Source: a virus
Taxonomy: Duplodnaviria; Caudoviricetes
Virus record (IMG/VR): IMGVR_UViG_3300025087_000034
DNA: 64,000 nucleotides
Strand: one strand, 5' to 3'
Below, one piece after another: positions 29,053 through 51,992 of this stretch. How positions within the stretch are numbered: the stretch's first letter is position 1; the number at the start of each line of letters is the position of its first letter. The notes below the pieces were generated by a model, which was given only the letters and a program-made list of their open reading frames with translations, had not been told where the DNA came from and did not search any database. Position numbers and translations under genes: made by a program.

Positions 29053-29081
29053 TTGACCTTTTTAGCCTCGCAACCTATTAT
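29053..29081 (+). promoter_or_regulatory. tnpB promoter
   Basis: TTGACC-17 nt-TATTAT inside the element left end. Confidence 0.65.
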
Positions 29082-29109
29082 TATAATAAGTCCCAGGGAG
29101 GGACTTTCA

Positions 29110-30186
29110 ATGGTTAAAACTTTTTCCTTCCGTATAAAAGATTCCACCTCTGCTAAGCACCTTTATGCTATGGCTAGAGCTGTAAACTTTGTATGGAACT
29201 ATTGCAATGAGGTTCAAAAGAAGGCTGCTAATAGTCATAGGCCCTGGGTTAATTGGGTAATGTTAAATAACCTAACTTCCGGGTGTTCCAAGGAACTTCG
29301 TTTGCATAGCCAAACTATTCAAGCTATTGACGAATGTTATGCTACTTCACTAAAGGAAGCCAAATCTCCTACTGGTAAAAAGAAACGTTTCCTACGATTC
29401 CGTGGTAGAAGAAGCCAGGGCTGGATTCCTTTCAAAGCTTCTGGAATAAAACTTCGTAAGGATTCCGTTGTTTACCAAGGACGAATATTCCGCTTCTGGA
29501 AGACTCGAAGTATTCCTGAACAAATTAAGGGTGGAAACTTCTCTTGTGACGTTAGGGGTCGTTGGTACCTTAACCTTGTCTGTGAATACGAGGAAGCCCT
29601 TGTTTCCAACGAAGGTAGTGTTGGCATTGATTTAGGACTTAAGTCTTTGGCTACCTTGTCTAACGGTAAAAAGTACGATGCTCAAAAGTTCTTCCGCAAG
29701 TATGAGAGAAAGCTTGCTCACCACCAACGGTGTAATAATGCACGTCAAGTAAGAACGATTCATGCTAAGATAGCTAACTCTCGTAAAGATTTCAACCATA
29801 AAGTTTCCCATGAGTTGACCAGAGACTTTAATAAGGTATTCATCGGTGACGTAGACAGCCTTGGTCTATTAAAGACCAGGCTAGCCAAGTCAGTTTCCGA
29901 CGCTTCTTGGGGTCAGCTCCGTACCTTCATTGAATACAAAGCGATTGCGCGTGGTGGTACGTACTACGTTGTTGACGAGAACAACACTACTCGAACCTGT
30001 TCAGCCTGTGGGTGCCTTACTGGGCCCTCCGGTCTAGCAGGGCTTCGAGTTAGAGAATGGCAGTGTAAAGAGTGTGGCACGGTGCACGATAGGGATACCA
30101 ACTCAGCTATCAATATTGAACAACGAGGCCTCTCAACTCTGCATTCTCCACTCAGGACATTGAGTGCTAAAGAGGAAATTCCTTAG
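29110..30186 (+). CDS. tnpB: TnpB RNA-guided endonuclease (rearranged RuvC-II type)
   Basis: ATG 29110 after GGAGG. VNFVWNYC, GIDLGLK, VFIGDV, VDENNTTRTCSAC, CKECGTVHDRDTNSAINI. Confidence 0.92.
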   Translation: MVKTFSFRIKDSTSAKHLYAMARAVNFVWNYCNEVQKKAANSHRPWVNWVMLNNLTSGCSKELRLHSQTIQAIDECYATSLKEAKSPTGKKKRFLRFRGRRSQGWIPFKASGIKLRKDSVVYQGRIFRFWKTRSIPEQIKGGNFSCDVRGRWYLNLVCEYEEALVSNEGSVGIDLGLKSLATLSNGKKYDAQKFFRKYERKLAHHQRCNNARQVRTIHAKIANSRKDFNHKVSHELTRDFNKVFIGDVDSLGLLKTRLAKSVSDASWGQLRTFIEYKAIARGGTYYVVDENNTTRTCSACGCLTGPSGLAGLRVREWQCKECGTVHDRDTNSAINIEQRGLSTLHSPLRTLSAKEEIP

Positions 30187-30240
30187 GAATCCCCTGACTT
30201 TAGTCGGGGGAGGATGTCAATGCTTCGTTCTTTTGATTTG
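30060..30240 (+). ncRNA. TnpB omega/reRNA (scaffold to 30220, guide from the right flank)
   Basis: Established architecture of tnpB elements. The 5' boundary is approximate and not directly visible. Confidence 0.55.
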
Positions 30241-33120: not shown

Positions 33121-33724
33121 AACATATACACAGGATTGGTTTGATAGGTGTATACCTTCTTGGACAAAATATCTTGATAAATATAAGGGAAAGGAAAACC
33201 TTAGGTTTCTAGAAGTTGGAAGTTATGAGGGGCGTTCCACTTGTTGGTTGTTGGACAATATTCTTACACATTTATCATCTAAAATAAAGTGTTTTGATTT
33301 GTTTGAGGGTTGTTCTTCTCAGGGGGAGTGGTCTAAAGAACTCTACGATAGGTATAATATGAGTGAGGTTTTCAGGAACTTCATTAGTAATGTTTCTTCT
33401 TATGGTGACCGTGTTGAATATAGGGTAGGGGTTTCTCAAGAACTCTTACGTGAACTAGGGCATTCTCCCTTGTTTGATTTTATATATATAGATGGTTCCC
33501 ATATAGCTTGTGACGTTCTTGAAGATTCCGTTCTTGCTTTTAGGCTTCTTAAGCCCAACGGTATAATGATATTGGATGACTATACCTGGGAATTTTTTGA
33601 GGAACCTTTACGCCATCCTAAAATGGGAATAGATGCTTTTCTTACTATTTTTCATGGTCAATTTGATGTGTTGTTAAAAGACAGACAGGTTATATTAAGA
33701 AAGACAGGAATAAAAGAAGAGTAA
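33113..33724 (+). CDS. class I SAM-dependent methyltransferase (Methyltransf_24-like)
   Basis: FLEVGSYEGRS, FDFIYIDGSH, LLKPNGIMILDDY. Its stop codon is supplied by the IscB element end. Confidence 0.88.
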   Translation: MIRTYTQDWFDRCIPSWTKYLDKYKGKENLRFLEVGSYEGRSTCWLLDNILTHLSSKIKCFDLFEGCSSQGEWSKELYDRYNMSEVFRNFISNVSSYGDRVEYRVGVSQELLRELGHSPLFDFIYIDGSHIACDVLEDSVLAFRLLKPNGIMILDDYTWEFFEEPLRHPKMGIDAFLTIFHGQFDVLLKDRQVILRKTGIKEE

Positions 33725-33967
33725 GCAACCCCACGCCTAAGGGCGGGGGCTTTCGAGTCCTTGCTTACTAGGGAACAATTCCAAAAAAGGAGTCGTTAAT
33801 CGTTGAGTAGAAGAAATACATACACACCTACGGATGCTCCTCAAGTTCGTAGCAACTGTGACGCTGAATTAAAAACCCCTAGGGGTAGGGGTGGTGTTCA
33901 GCGTTTAAAAACTCTACCCAACCGTCCCGATGAGGATCTAATCTTAGCTTCGGCTAAGAGACAGAAC
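33700..33967 (+). ncRNA. IscB omega RNA 1 (5' flank-derived guide + scaffold)
   Basis: ~250-nt hairpin-rich leader conserved with 49451-49701, upstream of a PLMP-type iscB. Confidence 0.75.
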
Positions 33968-35217
33968 TTGCGAGTCTCTGTCTATGTCTTAAACCAGCGA
34001 AGTCAGCCATTGATGCCAACAACACCAAGAAAAGCTGAGAAGCTATTGAAGGAGGGAAAGGCTATAGTTGTTAAGCGAGCGCCTTTCACTATTCAGTTGA
34101 CCTATTCTACGGGAGAGAACAAACAGCCCATCAGGCTAGGGGTAGATAGTGGTTTCGTACACGTAGGATTATCAGCAGTTTCAAAGAAACAAGAACTTTA
34201 CTCTGCCGAGGTTCAACTACGAATCGATATAGTGAATTTATTATCGGAACGTAGGTCTTATAGGAGAAATCGTAGAAATAGAAAGACTCGCTATCGTCAA
34301 GCTCGTTTCCTTAATCGAGGTATAAAAAAAGGCTGGCGGGCTCCTTCTATTCAGCACAAATTGGATAGCCATATTAGGTTGGTAAACAAGGTTAAGCAAA
34401 TCTTACCCATTACTGAGGTGGTGGTAGAGGTAGCCTCGTTTGATATTCAGAAGATAAAGAACCCAGAGATAAGTGGTAAACAGTATCAAGAGGGGGAACA
34501 AAAGGACTTTTGGAACACCAGAGAATACATCCTTCATAGAGATGACCATAAGTGCTGCCATTGTAAGGGTAAATCAAAGGACCCCATTCTTAGTGTTCAC
34601 CATTTGGAATCTAGGAAGACTGGTGGTGATAAACCAGCTAATTTGATAACGCTGTGTAAGACGTGCCACGATGATTACCATGGTGGAAAAATTGAATTGA
34701 AAGCGAAACCTTCCAAAGGGTTCAAAGCTGAAGTTTTTATGACAATGGTACGATGGCGCTTAGTAGAACAGTTGCAATGTAGGTACATCTATGGCTATGT
34801 CACCAAACAAGCTAGGGTATTGTTAGGCTTGCCTAAGAGCCATATCAACGACGCATTTGTAATCGTGAGTTCAGGGGCGTGTCCTAGAAGCCAAACCTAC
34901 TTTATTAAGCAGGTTAGAAAGCAAAATCGTAAGCTCTTTAAGGGACTACATAGTGGAATAAGAAACACAGCAACTCGTTATATCCAAGGTTTTCAACGGT
35001 ATGATAAAGTACTATGGAAGGGACAGGAGTGTTTTGTGTTTGGTAGACGAACCACGGGTTACTTTGACCTGAGATTATTAGACGGCACCAAAGTCCATAC
35101 TTCAGCTAAGGCTAAGGACTGTGTTAGACTAGAAAGCGGTAAAACGTTACTAACCCAAATAAGGAGCAGCGCTTCCTCCCCATGGTTAAAACCAAGGGTT
35201 TCCGCGCTGGAGATTCA
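33721..35217 (+). mobile_element. non-autonomous iscB (IS200/IS605 family) element 1
   Basis: Starts GTAAGCAACCCCACGCCTAAGGGCGGGGGC, ends with hairpin ...GGGTTTCCGCGCTGGAGATTCA directly before ATGA. Ends are homologous to element 2. Confidence 0.85.
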
Positions 35218-35221
35218 ATGA
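33968..35221 (+). CDS. iscB: IscB RNA-guided endonuclease 1
   Basis: YVLNQRSQPLMP, LGVDSG (RuvC-I), Arg-rich bridge helix, VVEV, HNH (VHHL..RKTGGD...NLITLCKTCH), SHINDA. Start TTG 33968 is inferred. Confidence 0.93.
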   Translation: MRVSVYVLNQRSQPLMPTTPRKAEKLLKEGKAIVVKRAPFTIQLTYSTGENKQPIRLGVDSGFVHVGLSAVSKKQELYSAEVQLRIDIVNLLSERRSYRRNRRNRKTRYRQARFLNRGIKKGWRAPSIQHKLDSHIRLVNKVKQILPITEVVVEVASFDIQKIKNPEISGKQYQEGEQKDFWNTREYILHRDDHKCCHCKGKSKDPILSVHHLESRKTGGDKPANLITLCKTCHDDYHGGKIELKAKPSKGFKAEVFMTMVRWRLVEQLQCRYIYGYVTKQARVLLGLPKSHINDAFVIVSSGACPRSQTYFIKQVRKQNRKLFKGLHSGIRNTATRYIQGFQRYDKVLWKGQECFVFGRRTTGYFDLRLLDGTKVHTSAKAKDCVRLESGKTLLTQIRSSASSPWLKPRVSALEIQ

Positions 35222-45871: not shown

Positions 45872-48157
45872 ATGGTAATAAGTCGTTTGTGTGACAATTC
45901 TGAAGCCATTCTTCGGGCTCGTTATTATCTTAACGAGAATGAGGACTGGCCGGTTCTCTGTCACAGGGTTACTGACAGTGTAATTCCTATTTCTTGCAGT
46001 AGGTATGATTATACCGAAGAAGAAGTAAGGGAATTAACAAGAAGGATGTTTGAGCATATAAATAATCTTGAGTTTTTGCCAAATTCTCCTACTATGTTTA
46101 ATGCTGGAACTGAGTATCCTATGCTAAGCGCGTGTTTCGTAATAGACGTTCCAGACAATCTGCCCGGTATCTATGAGTCTGTTAAAGAGTCAGCCATGAT
46201 TCATAAAATGGGTGGGGGTGTTGGTTTTTCTTTAAGTAAGCTAAGATGTCGAGGGTCAAAAATTGCTACTACACACGGTAATAGCGGTGGAGCGGTTTCT
46301 TTTCTGAAGGTATTCGCAAATGGCACTGCTGAAATAACGGCGGCGGGTAAGCGTAAAGGGGCCAACATGGCCATGCTTAGAATAGACCATGCAGATATTG
46401 AAGAATTTATAAATTGTAAGTCTGTAGAGGGGGAGTTGGCTAATTTTAATATTTCACTACAATTTACTGACTCTTTTTTATCCGCCTGCTTAAATGACAC
46501 TGAAATTAGTTTGATCGATCCAAAGGATGGGTCGGTAGTGAGAGTTGTGCAAGCTAGGAGTTTGATGAGAAAGGCAGCAGAAGGGGCGTGGAATAATGGC
46601 GAGCCTGGGGCATGTTATATAGATGCAGTAAACAGGGATAACCCCACACCGCACCTGGGGGAAATAAACTCATCAAACCCTTGTGGGGAGTACTATTCTT
46701 CTCCATCTTATAATTCGTGTACATTAGGATCTATAAATCTAACAAGGTATGTTATGGTTAAAAATATCGAAAGTTCGATTGTTTTTGATTGGGAAAAATT
46801 CCGTAAAGATATTTTTGATTATGTTTTTTATTTAGATTGTATCATAGATGCAAATAGTTTTCCTTTAGAGAAAATAAAAGAAGTAACTTGCAAAACCAGA
46901 CCTATAGGTTTGGGTGTTATGGGTTTTGCGGACATTCTTATTATGATGGGTATTAAATATAATTCTGAGGAAGGTCTTTCTTTTGCTCGCGAACTTTCTG
47001 AGAATCTTAGCTACTATTCATTAGTAGCTAGTAAAGAGTTAGCTAAGAAAAGAGGCCATTACGCAGAATTTAGGGTAGAAAATCATGGGTATGAAAAGGC
47101 TAGGGGCTTAGGTGTTCTGGATTGGGAAGCCTTGGTTAAAGAAATAAAAATACATGGACTTAGAAATTCGCATACTGTGGTAATAGCCCCAACTGGTACT
47201 ATTGCCAGGATTGCTAATGAGTGTTCTTTTGGGATAGAGCCCATATTTTCAAAGAGTTTTGAAAGTAATATATTAGATGGAGCTAAGCAAGAAACCAAGA
47301 ATGGTTTGTACCAAAAGTTTTTAGATGGTGAGTTAAAGGTAGGTGAGGACGTCTTTGTTTGTGCTAAGGATATTTCTTGGCAAGACCATATCAAAATGCA
47401 GGCTGAGTGGCAAAAGTTCGTACACAATGGTATAAGTAAGACCATAGGAATGCCTAATAGTGCTACTACCCAGGACGTGTACGCTGCATATATGATGGCG
47501 TATGAACTGGGCCTAAAGGGTATCACGGTGTATAGGGAGGGGAGTAGAAAACAAGAGGTTCTTGTTGAGAAGTCAAAGAAAGAAGAGTGGCATGGGGTGG
47601 GTGATACGTTTGAGCATGCTTCCCCTATAAAACGACCTTTAGAGCTAGAATGCGACATACATCATACACAGGTTGGTGGAGAAAAGTGGGTAGTTCTTGT
47701 AGGGCTCTTAGATGGCAAGCCATATGAAATTTTTGGCGGGCTACAAAAATTCATAGAATTACCTAGGAAATATACTAAGGGCCTGATAGTAAAGAAACCA
47801 AACAAAAAAAGTAGAAGTAAGTATGATTTAATCCTAGATAAAGGAACCCCTGATGAATTAGTTGTTAAAGATATAGTATCTGTATTTGAAAATAAAGAAC
47901 ATGGTGTTGTTGGTAGGTTGATTAGTTTATCTTTGCGTCATCAGGCTCGCCCAAGTTTTCTTTGTGAGCAGTTAATAAAAGATGACGATTTCGATTTTCA
48001 AACGTACAGTAAAGTTATAGCACGTATTTTGAAGAGGTATATAGTAGATGGTGAAAACCCTGAAAGTTCAAAAGTTTGCCCTGAGTGTGGCGGGGAGCTT
48101 TATTATATGGAGGGGTGTGTTTTATGCCATTCGTGTGCATGGTCGAAGTGCTCATAA
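45872..48157 (+). CDS. nrdJ: class II (adenosylcobalamin-dependent) ribonucleotide reductase
   Basis: FLPNSPT..NAG, LSACF, GGVG, NPCGE, SCTLGSINL, RPIGLG, IAPTGT, C-terminal TSCPD and Zn-ribbon; no beta subunit nearby. Confidence 0.92.
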   Translation: MVISRLCDNSEAILRARYYLNENEDWPVLCHRVTDSVIPISCSRYDYTEEEVRELTRRMFEHINNLEFLPNSPTMFNAGTEYPMLSACFVIDVPDNLPGIYESVKESAMIHKMGGGVGFSLSKLRCRGSKIATTHGNSGGAVSFLKVFANGTAEITAAGKRKGANMAMLRIDHADIEEFINCKSVEGELANFNISLQFTDSFLSACLNDTEISLIDPKDGSVVRVVQARSLMRKAAEGAWNNGEPGACYIDAVNRDNPTPHLGEINSSNPCGEYYSSPSYNSCTLGSINLTRYVMVKNIESSIVFDWEKFRKDIFDYVFYLDCIIDANSFPLEKIKEVTCKTRPIGLGVMGFADILIMMGIKYNSEEGLSFARELSENLSYYSLVASKELAKKRGHYAEFRVENHGYEKARGLGVLDWEALVKEIKIHGLRNSHTVVIAPTGTIARIANECSFGIEPIFSKSFESNILDGAKQETKNGLYQKFLDGELKVGEDVFVCAKDISWQDHIKMQAEWQKFVHNGISKTIGMPNSATTQDVYAAYMMAYELGLKGITVYREGSRKQEVLVEKSKKEEWHGVGDTFEHASPIKRPLELECDIHHTQVGGEKWVVLVGLLDGKPYEIFGGLQKFIELPRKYTKGLIVKKPNKKSRSKYDLILDKGTPDELVVKDIVSVFENKEHGVVGRLISLSLRHQARPSFLCEQLIKDDDFDFQTYSKVIARILKRYIVDGENPESSKVCPECGGELYYMEGCVLCHSCAWSKCS

Positions 48158-48158
48158 T

Positions 48159-48251
48159 GTTTATGAAACTTTTAAACGTTTTGACCTTATAAAAGAGGCC
48201 GGTTATAATTTGGTGTATATTTGGGAATATGACTTTTTAAACTTACTATAA
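48159..48251 (+). pseudogene. C-terminal remnant of a Zn-repeat/Vsr-type endonuclease
   Basis: YETFKRFDLIKEAGYNLVYIWEYDFLN matches YQETLERIKILEEAGYKVIYIWEQDFLN of 44917-45801. Confidence 0.7.
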
Positions 48252-48789: not shown

Positions 48790-48819
48790 GACCATTTTAG
48801 GGAGGGTGGATAAATCTTG

Positions 48820-49470
48820 ATGTTTGATATAGAAGAAACACTACGGGATTCAGGAATTAATTTAATCTTAGGTGTGGATGAGGTAGGTAGGGGTGCTTTA
48901 ATATCTGATGTTGTTGTTTCATGTGTAATTTTGCCGGCGGGCCATAAAATAGAAGGTATAAAAGACTCAAAAAAATTTACAGGTCCTAAAGCGCATGAAA
49001 ATAGAATAAAGATATCAAAATTAATACATGAAAGAGCTTTGGAAGTTCATATAATTTCTGCACCAGCAGAAGTTATAGATAAAATAAATATATTAGAAGC
49101 AACAAAACTGTGTATAATAACAGCTATATCAAAATGTAAAATAAAACCAGGTATGGTTATAATAGATGGTGATATGGAATTTGAAGATGGTGAAATTATG
49201 TATCCATATATGTGTGTAGAAAAGGCGGACTCTAGGAGTGAAAACGTAGCGGCTGCCTCTATTGTAGCTAAGGTACACAGAGATAATCATATGTTATTGT
49301 TGGATAAAGTTTATCCACAATATGGTTTAGCACAGCACAAAGGCTATGGAACAAAAGAGCATATGGAGGCCATATTAAAATATGGTCCTTGTGAACTTCA
49401 TAGGAAGTCTTTTAGTGTAAAAGGAAGAAAAATAGGGAGTATTAAACCTAGTAAGCAGCCCCACGCCTAA
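48820..49470 (+). CDS. rnhB: ribonuclease HII
   Basis: GVDEVGRG, IKDSK, IIDG, KADS...VAAASIVAKVHRD, HKGYGT..H, HRKSF. Last 6 codons lie in the IscB element 2 end. Confidence 0.93.
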   Translation: MFDIEETLRDSGINLILGVDEVGRGALISDVVVSCVILPAGHKIEGIKDSKKFTGPKAHENRIKISKLIHERALEVHIISAPAEVIDKINILEATKLCIITAISKCKIKPGMVIIDGDMEFEDGEIMYPYMCVEKADSRSENVAAASIVAKVHRDNHMLLLDKVYPQYGLAQHKGYGTKEHMEAILKYGPCELHRKSFSVKGRKIGSIKPSKQPHA

Positions 49471-49701
49471 AGGTGGGGGCTTTTAGGAGCCCTTACTTAC
49501 TAGGGAGCGATCCCAGAAAGGAGTCGTTAATCGTTGAGTAGAAGAGATACATACACACCTACGAATGCTCCTCAAGTTCATAGCAACTGTGGCGCTGAAT
49601 TAAAAACCCCTAGGGGTAGGGGTGGTGTTCAGCGTTTAAAAACTCTACCCAACAATCCCGATGAGGACCTAACCCGTGGACAGGGGGTACATTTAACATT
49701 A
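49430..49701 (+). ncRNA. IscB omega RNA 2
   Basis: Homologous to 33721-33967. Confidence 0.75.
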
Positions 49702-50936
49702 GTGTACGTACTGAACAATCGTGGTGAGCCGTTGATGCCTTGTAGTCCAAAGAAAGCCAAAGCATTGCTAAAGGAGGGAAAAGCCAAGGTAAGGACTAGA
49801 ACACCTTTTACGATACAATTGCTTTATGGTAGCTCAGGTTACAAACAACCTATTAGGTTGGGAGTAGACAGTGGTTTTAAGCACGTAGGACTATCTGCTG
49901 TTTCTGACAAGCAGGAACTTTACTCTGTTGAAGTCCAGCTTAGAATCGACATAGTGAATTTATTATCGGAACGTAGGTCTTATAGGAGAAATCGTAGAAA
50001 TAGAAAGACTCGCTATCGTCAAGCTCGTTTCCTTAATCGAGGAATAAAAAAAGGCTGGCTAGCCCCCAGTATTCAACACAAACTAGATAGCCATGTTAGG
50101 TTAGTAAACAAGGTTAAGCAAATCTTACCCGTTATTGAGGTGGTGGTAGAGGTAGCCTTGTTTGATATTCAGAAGATAAAGAATCCAGAGACGGGTGGTA
50201 AACAGTACCAAGAAGGGGAACAAAAGGGTTTTTGGAACACCAGAGAATACATACTCCACAGGGACAACCACAAGTGTTGCCACTGTAAGGGTAAATCAAA
50301 CGACACTGTTCTTAATGTTCACCATTTGGAGTCTAGAAAAATTGGTGGCGATAGACCGGAGAATTTAATAACACTTTGTAAGACGTGTCATGATACTTAT
50401 CATAATGGAGGGATTAAATTGAAAGCAAAGCCTTCTAAAGGGTTCAAAGCTGAAACTTTTATGACAATGGTACGATGGCGTTTAGTAGAACAATTGAGCT
50501 GCAGCTACACTTATGGTTACGTTACCAAGCATAATAGAACCTTGATAGGACTACCCAAGAGTCACGCAAACGATGCATTTGTAATCGCGAGCAAAATAGA
50601 CCGACCTAGATGTCAGTCTTATCAGATCAAACAAGTTAGGAAGCAAAATCGTAAGCTGTTCAAAGGACCACATAGTGGAGTAAGAAACACAGCCGCTAGA
50701 TATATTCAAGGTTTTCAACGGTACGATAAAGTAAAGTGGAAATCTCAGGAGTGTTTTGTGTTTGGGCGAAGGACTAGGGGTACTTTTGATCTAAGGCTAC
50801 TAGATAGGACTAAACTTTGTGGTGATGCTAAAGCTAAAGACTGTGTTAGGCTAGAAAGCGGTAGAACGTTCTTAACTCAAAGGAGCAGCGTTTCTTCCCC
50901 GGGGCTAAAGCTCGGGGTACCCGCGCTGAAGATTTG
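49451..50936 (+). mobile_element. non-autonomous iscB element 2
   Basis: Starts GTAAGCAGCCCCACGCCTAAAGGTGGGGGC, ends ...GGGGTACCCGCGCTGAAGATTTG directly before ATGG. Confidence 0.85.
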
Positions 50937-50937
50937 A
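49702..50937 (+). CDS. iscB: IscB RNA-guided endonuclease 2
   Basis: VYVLNNRGEPLMP, LGVDSG, bridge helix, HNH, SHANDA. Start GTG 49702 is inferred. Confidence 0.93.
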   Translation: MYVLNNRGEPLMPCSPKKAKALLKEGKAKVRTRTPFTIQLLYGSSGYKQPIRLGVDSGFKHVGLSAVSDKQELYSVEVQLRIDIVNLLSERRSYRRNRRNRKTRYRQARFLNRGIKKGWLAPSIQHKLDSHVRLVNKVKQILPVIEVVVEVALFDIQKIKNPETGGKQYQEGEQKGFWNTREYILHRDNHKCCHCKGKSNDTVLNVHHLESRKIGGDRPENLITLCKTCHDTYHNGGIKLKAKPSKGFKAETFMTMVRWRLVEQLSCSYTYGYVTKHNRTLIGLPKSHANDAFVIASKIDRPRCQSYQIKQVRKQNRKLFKGPHSGVRNTAARYIQGFQRYDKVKWKSQECFVFGRRTRGTFDLRLLDRTKLCGDAKAKDCVRLESGRTFLTQRSSVSSPGLKLGVPALKI

Positions 50938-51992
50938 TGGCTAGTTTTGATTTAGATAAAGAATATTTAAGTCTTGATGATGTTCTTTTGGTACCTGCCT
51001 ATTCAGAAATAGCAAGCAGGTTGGATACAGATATATCTACAACATTGGTTGGTAATATAAAGATAAAAATACCTGTTGTTTCAGCTGCCATGGATACAAT
51101 TTCTGGGAAGGATATGGGTATCAAGTTGGGTCGTTTAGGTGGGGCCGCTTTTCTTCACAGGTTTGCTTCAGATGAAGAAATTGTGTCCATGGTAAAAGAT
51201 ATAAAAGAGGCAGGTCAGTTAGCTATACCTTCTATAGGAATAAGGAAGGACATAGTTCAATGGGTAGATGTATTATTGGGCGCCGGTGCTGACGTAATAT
51301 CTATTGATATAGCACACGGGCACAGTAAAGAGGTTTTAACAACAATAGGTTTGTTGAAGGGCGTTTATAAAGAGGCGTGCAAAGTAGTGGCTGGTAATGT
51401 TGCCACAAAAGAGGGTGTTCATGACCTAATTGAGGCGGGTGCAGACGCTGTAAAGGTTTTTGTAGGCCCGGGGGCTGCGTGTTCTACTCGTGTAGTAACT
51501 GGTTTTGGCGTCCCTACCTTCTCATGTTTAGTAGAGTGTCTTGGTGAGGCATCTAGACACAATATTCCTATAATAGCTGATGGTGGGCTAAAAGCCCCCG
51601 GTGATTTTACTAAATGCTTGGCAGTGGGTGCTAGTGCCTGTATGTCAGGATCAATGCTCTCTGCTACGGATGAGACTCCTGGTAAGTATGTAAAGATACG
51701 GGACAAATTTTATAAAGAATACAGGGGGATGGCGTCTGAGGCTAGCCAGAAGGACTTCAAGAGGGGGTTGAAATTAGGTACTGCGTCAGAGGGTGAGGCT
51801 ATGCTTTTTGAATCTAAGGGACCTGTAAAGGATGTTATAGATAGGATAACCGGAGGCATTAGAAGCGGCCTTACCTATTGTGGGGCTAAAAACCTGCAAG
51901 AGCTTAGGGAAAAAGCCCGCTTTATAAGAATAACCCAAAGTGCGGCAGCGGAAGGTTTGCCACACGGCCTGAATAACAAGGGGGCCCTTTGA
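50937..51992 (+). CDS. guaB: IMP dehydrogenase/GMP reductase family enzyme (no CBS domains)
   Basis: DDVLLVP, SAAMDT, IDIAHGHS, AGNVAT, GPGAACSTR, IIADGG, YRGMAS. Confidence 0.85.
   Translation: MASFDLDKEYLSLDDVLLVPAYSEIASRLDTDISTTLVGNIKIKIPVVSAAMDTISGKDMGIKLGRLGGAAFLHRFASDEEIVSMVKDIKEAGQLAIPSIGIRKDIVQWVDVLLGAGADVISIDIAHGHSKEVLTTIGLLKGVYKEACKVVAGNVATKEGVHDLIEAGADAVKVFVGPGAACSTRVVTGFGVPTFSCLVECLGEASRHNIPIIADGGLKAPGDFTKCLAVGASACMSGSMLSATDETPGKYVKIRDKFYKEYRGMASEASQKDFKRGLKLGTASEGEAMLFESKGPVKDVIDRITGGIRSGLTYCGAKNLQELREKARFIRITQSAAAEGLPHGLNNKGAL

Follow-up and report, generated by a model that had tools for sequence, protein, structure and literature searches.

The stretch of DNA described here, referred to as the window, comprises 64,000 nucleotides of the IMG/VR virus record IMGVR_UViG_3300025087_000034 (Duplodnaviria; Caudoviricetes). 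The complete record is 133 kb in length with a CheckV completeness of 58%. The carrier is an uncultured groundwater jumbo phage, and identical genes are found on groundwater-metagenome contigs of up to 258 kb. The subject of this report is the second of two intact IscB elements in the window, hereafter element 2, which is inserted between a gene for RNase HII (rnhB) and a gene of the IMPDH/GMP-reductase family. Listed below are the features of the locus in window coordinates.

48817-49470, plus strand: RNase HII gene (rnhB); Pfam RNase_HII, E 8e-33
49430-49450, plus strand: left flank and putative omegaRNA guide, the 16-21 nucleotides directly 5' of HEARO model position 1
49451-50936, plus strand: element 2, a whole ISC (IscB) element of 1486 bp without TnpA, terminal inverted repeats, or a target-site duplication
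49451-49673, plus strand: omegaRNA scaffold (HEARO, RF02033), overlapping the 5' part of the iscB open reading frame (ORF)
49534-50937, plus strand: iscB ORF, 467 codons from TTG; Pfam RRXRR, E 2e-65, and HNH, E 3e-6
50776-50778, plus strand: codon for Arg 415 in the motif FGRRT-R-GTF, candidate reader of base 4 of the target-adjacent motif (TAM)
50937-50940, plus strand: ATGG, the TAM, which is also the start codon plus the first base of codon 2 (from the sequence and homologues)
50937-51992, plus strand: IMPDH/GMP-reductase-family gene, 351 residues; Pfam IMPDH, E 5e-101, over residues 11-343; without a CBS pair

Element 2 is an intact ISC/IS200-IS605 element that carries an omegaRNA and an IscB gene and no TnpA. 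The RF02033 match extends over model positions 1-211, end to end, with a score of 116.3 bits (gathering score, 83; E 2.5e-23). Because the full model is covered, the omegaRNA scaffold begins at G49451. This match, together with a covariance model of our own (R2), sets the 5' end of the element, and the 3' end is set by a constant spacer of 7-8 nucleotides that follows the terminal hairpin in ∼80 relatives. The first intact copy in the window, element 1, is 79% identical to element 2 at the nucleotide level, and the identity stops at both boundaries. The 5' terminus reads GTAAGC and thus is of the 5'-GT type, neither of the flanks, CCTA or ATGG, is duplicated, and the 5' hairpins fall in the P1 region of HEARO. 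The placement of the guide 5' of the scaffold follows the layout of Meers et al. 2023 (bioRxiv 10.1101/2023.03.14.532601).

The true start of the iscB gene is uncertain given that similarity to solved IscB chains (E 6e-42) begins only at residue 55. In an alignment with OgeuIscB, the RuvC/HNH catalytic motifs GVDSG, VVVEV, HANDAF, and VHH...N are retained along with EPLMP, and all are invariant in four relatives. Neither sequence nor profile searches with the TI domain yielded a usable PDB match. A predicted model of this domain (residues 348-467, pLDDT 73) has as its nine best PDB matches only IscB/IsrB TI domains, with modest Z scores of 6.2-7.0, below 8. Between the iscB genes of elements 1 and 2, the ratio of nonsynonymous to synonymous substitutions (dN/dS) is 0.11 at a dS of 1.1, and thus both genes have been kept functional. 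A terminator scan of element 2 gave no plus-strand match at the 3' end, and the matches of a promoter scan were near the shuffle expectation. We consider it very improbable that the insertion is an inert relic, fixed, inactive, and merely tolerated. Although the element is fixed in all contexts listed (see below) and the genome contains a decayed family member of 257 bp (the remnant), the ORF of element 2 is intact with all catalytic motifs, selection on it is strong, the omegaRNA scores well above its gathering threshold, and both ends are preserved.

At the left junction the final 20 nucleotides of rnhB (49451-49470) are element sequence, such that the protein ends in ...KP/SKQPHA followed by a stop codon. 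The RNase HII proteins of relatives stop 2-5 residues past a conserved ...KIG motif. At the right junction the last base of the element, G50936, directly abuts the downstream ATG. The iscB stop codon TGA (50935-50937) consists of the TG of the element and A50937 of the ATG (50937-50939), so that A50937 belongs to both codons. The downstream protein begins MASFDLDKEYL here and MAIFDLDKEYL in its closest homologue, which argues that the native start codon of the gene is in use. The initial annotation of this DNA had already given the element boundaries and the layout of guide and TAM, which agree with the positions of HEARO, the ORF, and the flanks, and had correctly described both the RNase HII tail and the TG/A overlap. 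The start-codon junction that it proposed likewise stands, but its gap of one base between the element and the ATG does not. Its label guaB for the downstream gene holds at the level of the IMPDH/GMP-reductase family, the protein being of 351 residues and without the CBS pair.

Joining position 49450 to 50937, as had been predicted for the empty site, gives AAA CCT AAT GGC TAG with an 8-nucleotide overlap of the two genes. This frame holds, but the allele itself was not encountered in its context. Viral contigs contain 36 matches to the empty-site 15-mer AAACCTAATGGCTAG, but neither rnhB nor IMPDH lies close to any of them, and because this context is missing, these matches are attributed to chance. 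The 15-mer is absent from the phage's own genome. Searches of viral contigs with the RNase HII, IMPDH, and acetyltransferase proteins recovered relatives at 40% identity or less only. Related phages share the gene order of ribonucleotide reductase, two small genes, rnhB, and an IMPDH-like gene, the last two of which abut or overlap. The junction reads GATATGTA/ATGATT in one of them (L141) and GATTTGTAGA/ATGGAG in another with the same gene order (L142). On the contig of the closest relative, which encodes a downstream protein of 81% identity, there is an upstream gene of 65 residues, truncated at the edge of the contig, that has a 14-nucleotide overlap with the start of the downstream gene. 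As judged from the protein sequence alone, this overlap can be reconstructed as the predicted empty-site frame. The relatives therefore support use of the native start codon and a close or overlapping arrangement of rnhB and the downstream gene, but not the exact allele AAACCTAATGGCTAG in its proper context.

As a separate observation on L141, its ribonucleotide reductase (L141:1-1592) has 1067 residues with LAGLIDADG/Hom_end matches, versus 761 residues in the window. It probably carries an intein or homing endonuclease without counterpart in the window gene.

Two further copies of the family are present in the genome.

33721-35217, plus strand: element 1 (IscB plus omegaRNA); flank ATGA at 35218-35221; end motif GTTTCC; Thr at the position of residue 415
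∼G000:C1:120778-121034 (L003:1501-1757), minus strand: remnant of 257 bp without an ORF, outside the window; flank ATGG

The ATGA that follows element 1 is the start of an acetyltransferase-like gene, and a stop/start overlap occurs in both intact copies. The remnant retains a degenerate 5' end, pieces of omegaRNA and iscB, and an intact 3' end hairpin. It is preceded by TAA-GAGGACT and followed by ATGGAT, with which a helicase-like gene of 455 residues starts. Thus all three copies abut a start codon, and the repetition noted earlier for two extends to the remnant. Gene starts account for 4% of the 2230 ATGR sites in the genome, and the chance of three out of three is ∼7e-5, before any selection.

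For a broader view, 80 relatives from metagenomes (protein identities of 48-63%) and 80 from GTDB genomes were assembled. A covariance model (R1) was built from the 3' hairpin alone with the spacer and flank excluded, and the bases after each match were then read. From the two independent collections, 78 distinct elements with spacers of 5-11 nucleotides were retained. Their flank is ATGA in 74 cases, mostly ATGAA, and ATGG in four. Over the ∼160 related loci, ATGA accounts for ∼90% of the flanks. N/ATGA is the published target of a number of ISC families (Kapitonov et al. 2016, PMC4810608), the TnpA and IscB of a Geobacillus element have in common the motif TTCAT, or ATGAA when read along the iscB strand (Meers et al. 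2023, bioRxiv 10.1101/2023.03.14.532601), and the TAM of DtIsrB is NTGA (Hirano et al. 2022, PMC9581776). Insertion guided by ATG(R), as advanced in the initial annotation, is right but already published as a target.

Empty sites were next reconstructed in silico by joining the flanks wherever the 5' end could be placed by the Rfam model or by R2, and the flanking ATG was scored as a gene start when it opened an ORF of 60 or more residues and no in-frame start preceded it. The results are as follows.

Metagenome set: flank ATG a gene start in 17 of 44 (39%); control ATGA sites 4.5%; p 2e-12
GTDB set: flank ATG a gene start in 18 of 34 (53%); control ATGA sites 4.2%; p 2e-16

Longer control words fall at gene starts in 5.9% (ATGAA) and 8.7% (ATGAAA) of cases, and thus placement at start codons exceeds motif frequency 5-12 fold in both data sets. 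Among the insertion sites are several four-base ATGA stop/start overlaps. By eye, we take one downstream N-terminus, MKRTFQP, to be L34/rpmH-like, and another, MKPKVVVGMSGG, is presumably mnmA-like. The iscB stop codon overlaps the flanking ATG in approximately one-fifth of the relatives, and many of the genes stop inside the hairpin. Translational coupling is therefore not a trait of the family. The enrichment at start codons is robust, and the same result would be obtained either from targeting or from the survival of harmless insertions.

The architecture of the 3' end bears on how the target is chosen. The relevant features are given below.

50880-50885, plus strand: AAGGAG, part of the conserved word GAAAGGAG, just 5' of the end hairpin
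50886-50928, plus strand: two-tier subterminal hairpin at the 3' end of the element (left end in TnpA orientation)
50917-50922, plus strand: motif GTACCC, where ATGA-type elements have GTnTCC; located after the inner hairpin and before the 3' arm of the outer stem
50929-50936, plus strand: 8-nucleotide spacer AAGATTTG, the final bases of element 2

The outer arms of the hairpin correspond to 50886-50890 and 50924-50928, and the inner hairpin to 50897-50917. Compensatory changes are observed in eight of eight pairs of the inner hairpin (32 sequences), the outer arms covary by eye (alignment A3), and the predicted fold has an energy of -27.4 kcal/mol. In the relatives, 5-12 nucleotides, mostly 7-8, separate the hairpin from the ATG of the flank. 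In a subgroup (L056, L066, L067, L177, L179, and L183), a conserved additional segment of 19-23 nucleotides (CCTGCACCCCACGGAGTATT) lies between the hairpin and ATGA, and the element end thus carries an extra module. Four bacterial loci display two HEARO 5' ends, in tandem or close together, namely L082 (2260, 2637), L102 (2247, 5076), L119 (1618, 2187), and L217 (675, 2365). This suggests nested or tandem IscB elements.

The motif beside the hairpin varies with the flank, as can be seen for the elements that precede ATGG.

Element 2 (ATGG flank): motif GTACCC, window 50917-50922
Remnant (ATGG flank): motif GTACTC
L103 (ATGG flank): motif GTCCCC
Sutterella elements L205, L212, and L217 (ATGG flank): motif GTTCCC

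Base 4 of the motif, C50920 in element 2, is complementary to base 4 of the TAM, T being found with A and C with G. All four ATGG flanks in the collection accompany a C, and the ATGA flanks accompany a T in 68 elements and a C in two (Fisher p 1.3e-5). None of the 68 T-type elements has an ATGG flank. In the full-length protein alignment, residue 415 is the sole column of the TI domain that separates the ATGG elements from the rest. It is Ser in 45 and Thr in 20 of the ATGA elements, and rarely Asn, Leu, or Ala. The five ATGG-flanked elements above that retain IscB, which the remnant does not, all have Arg. Arg 415 is confined to the six elements with a motif C; in the 69 others, the position is occupied by Ser, Thr, Asn, Leu, or Ala. 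Of the 78 elements, none outside these six has either a motif C or Arg 415, and the flank is ATGG in four of the six. The switch between ATGA and ATGG occurred independently in two close pairs, elements 1 and 2 of this one genome and L101 and L103. On the basis of these sequence comparisons, the "ATGR" of the initial annotation is read as two lineage-specific targets, ATGA for element 1 and ATGG for element 2. Each is matched by its own end motif and residue 415, and therefore ATGR is not one relaxed motif; the ATG(R) target stands, the single specificity does not. The change from T to C in the end motif together with that from Ser/Thr to Arg 415 argues that the target of the transposase and the TAM of the nuclease moved together.

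Taken as a whole, we read element 2 as a functional, non-autonomous ISC-type IS200/IS605 transposon placed immediately before an ATGG that by coincidence starts the IMPDH/GMP-reductase-family gene, and we assign to this reading a probability of roughly 0.8. Its identity and boundaries, the conserved flank, the excess of insertions at gene starts, the covariation, and the purifying selection follow directly from the sequence data. We infer the following course of events. A Y1 transposase (TnpA) acting in trans, from the host or from a co-resident element, would set the single-stranded element beside a target of four nucleotides, the target being specified by pairing with the short motif beside the end hairpin (GTACCC in element 2). 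Read-through from rnhB would supply the omegaRNA with 16-21 nucleotides of the left flank as the guide. IscB could then cut an element-free allele, that is, the left flank followed by ATGG, in a sister genome after excision or in a co-infecting relative, and recombination would copy the element into the cut allele. Copies would last where they are harmless, which before a start codon would mean that the downstream protein, presumably translated from its own ATG, stays intact and the upstream gene loses a few residues at most. For rnhB at element 2, the predicted ...NG terminus would have been exchanged for ...SKQPHA.

A number of observations weigh against this interpretation. No match to a Y1 transposase (PF01797, Y1_Tnp) was obtained in the 133 kb of the record, the completeness of which is 58%. 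The element is present in nine of nine distinct contexts among the matches listed (24 contigs with an identical downstream protein). A search for an empty allele in this phage came up negative, and any current mobility of the element is therefore putative. With respect to the ATGG specificity, L186 and L192 have Arg and a motif C, yet their flanks are ATGA or ATGATGG, the latter being ambiguous. The effect of Arg may therefore be to relax recognition of base 4 and not to switch it, as does the engineered Q326R substitution in DtIsrB. An attempt to map Arg 415 onto R323/Q326 of DtIsrB failed, the alignment to 8dmb having a root mean square deviation of 5.7 Å and giving ranges only. This alignment places R323/Q326 nearer to residues 429-432 than to 415. 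Finally, the elements in the covariation table are phylogenetically non-independent and represent approximately four lineages.

Some of the same evidence can be turned toward a pure RNA-guided homing element, or inter-phage weapon, that no longer transposes in phages. It would spread and benefit its carrier only through the cutting by IscB of element-free relatives in co-infection, with co-conversion of the flanking genes. This account, which overlaps with the transposon reading, is possible but in our judgment doubtful. The failure to find TnpA in the record is in keeping with it, as is the occurrence of the element in every phage context listed, yet not at the same junction in related phages. 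So too are the identity of the guide with the pre-insertion junction and the strong purifying selection on the nuclease gene, and the concept of "non-restorative homing" discussed in PMC13565253 was also counted in its favor. The three copies, however, lie at three unrelated sites, and their end motif covaries with the target, and therefore a target choice of the transposase type was needed at some time. In addition, the guide of element 2 is unmatched by the rnhB ends of the related phages found, and a second TnpB insertion that is polymorphic among strains suggests mobility of IS200/605 elements in the population.

The TnpB elements of this phage deserve description in their own right. A TnpB gene of 377 residues lies at 29053-30186 of the window on the plus strand, and the IscB 3'-end model matches the minus strand immediately beyond the TnpB stop codon, at 30180-30239, with 31.6 bits. 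TnpB and IscB elements therefore share end hairpins with opposite gene orientation. Four contigs from other strains (L132, L134, L136, and L137) are essentially identical to the window from position 48163 on (99.99-100% in L132 and L136, which were checked). Upstream of this position, these contigs have another copy of TnpB, with 88% identity to window 29524-30220, and a DUF4379 gene of 211 residues, where the window instead has the end of the ribonucleotide reductase gene. For this second TnpB insertion, which is of the IS200/605 type, the phage population shows presence/absence polymorphism. At 48048-48251 of the window (plus strand), an ORF of 67 residues that finishes in ...GYNLVYIWEYDFLNLL overlaps the ribonucleotide reductase gene at its end. 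This ORF may be what is left of a small endonuclease-like gene akin to the DUF4379 gene found in the other haplotype.

Nearly all elements have the word GAAAGGAG immediately before the outer stem. In each instance recovered, the Arg of the word is encoded by AGG, versus 18% AGG among the Arg codons of the ORFs, and the word is found in three reading frames and, in two loci, 3' of the stop codon. For these reasons GAAAGGAG appears to be constrained as nucleic acid. It could serve as an outward-facing ribosome-binding site that is bridged by the hairpin to within 7-8 nucleotides of the host ATG, an assignment that we regard as unlikely. In predicted folds, its A-rich GAAAG part pairs with the T-rich spacer, and therefore the word may simply lengthen the hairpin that is read by TnpA.

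These findings bear on the proposal that the clade evolved start codons as safe harbors and actively restores expression of the displaced gene, either by coupling to the iscB stop codon (TGATG/ATGA) or by way of GAAAGGAG as a hairpin-bridged ribosome-binding site. Such an operon-preserving design would be in line with the enrichment at true starts beyond motif frequency in two data sets, with the nucleotide-level conservation of the word, with the constant geometry of word, hairpin, 7/8 nucleotides, and ATG, and with the stop/start overlap in both intact copies here. At many in-silico sites, moreover, the host Shine-Dalgarno sequence is severed from its ATG (L107, L126, L202, and the TAA-GAGGACT/ of the remnant). 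Selection against disruptive insertions predicts the same enrichment, however, the stop overlap is limited to the minority of relatives described above, and the pairing of GAAAG with the spacer leaves the word a possible role confined to the hairpin. We thus hold this design to be rather unlikely, and the "operon-preserving strategy" of the initial annotation did not find support, since the survival of harmless insertions yields the same picture. Still broader, and to our minds improbable, is the notion of a clade that harbors at start codons with a co-evolving end motif, residue 415, and target base, plus a ribosome-binding word, GAAAGGAG, that re-drives the displaced gene. If true, the element would be a self-contained "insert without polar effect" cassette, and a ribosome-binding role of GAAAGGAG would give substance to the term "operon-preserving."

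Element 2 itself is ordinary, namely a normal member of a known family at a known kind of target. What the analysis adds is the three-way covariation that makes it an ATGG-specific variant, together with the replicated start-codon statistic. The latter provides, for an IscB clade, a figure for insertion at true gene starts: 39-53% of the empty sites reconstructed in silico, whereas the motif alone would predict 4-9%. The sister elements of one genome at ATGA and ATGG constitute a natural experiment in TAM retargeting, and residue 415 (Ser/Thr or Arg) is a single-residue candidate handle on the TAM choice of IscB. The covariation lends evolutionary support to the view that transposase target and nuclease TAM have to stay in step. 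In the literature searched, no counterpart was found in which the end motif, the nuclease residue, and the target covary in natural elements.

With respect to known systems, in IS608 and ISDra2 a motif by the subterminal hairpin reportedly pairs with the target tetranucleotide, and an altered motif is said to retarget the element. The covariation of T/A to C/G at 50920/50940 fits this pairing model. Simple Watson-Crick registers between end motif and target, tried by hand, explained the covarying base, and only two of the four positions fit.

The GstIscB/ISGst system of Geobacillus stearothermophilus (bioRxiv 10.1101/2023.03.14.532601) employs the flank as the guide, as is proposed here for element 2. 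There, too, TnpA is mostly missing from the neighborhood (it accompanies ∼1.5% of iscB genes), and both elements are co-oriented with the upstream gene. Unlike GstIscB, element 2 has no known cognate TnpA, and base 4 of its TAM is G. In DtIsrB, Gln 326 of the TI domain reads TAM base 4, and the Q326R substitution renders ATGG and TTGG cleavable (Hirano et al. 2022, PMC9581776). The replacement of Ser/Thr 415 by Arg in element 2 follows the same logic of A to G with gain of an Arg, although the alignment to 8dmb did not establish structural equivalence of the two residues. DtIsrB, an IsrB protein, lacks the HNH domain and only nicks, whereas the IscB of element 2 possesses it.

The closest parallels are to the elements described by Kapitonov, Makarova, and Koonin in 2016 (PMC4810608), where the term "start codon" is not used. 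Like element 2, ISC2-1_HM, ISC2-1_MS, and ISC1-1_MA are IscB-only, non-autonomous, and 1.3-1.7 kb in length. ISC2 shares with it the 5'-GT terminus, the subterminal hairpins, and the lack of a target duplication, and inserts directly 5' of ATGA. ISC2 also shares its ends with IS605B (TnpB) elements of opposite orientation, as is likewise the case for the TnpB element at 29053-30186 of the window. Element 2 and the remnant differ from ISC2 in their position at ATGG, and their carrier is a jumbo phage.

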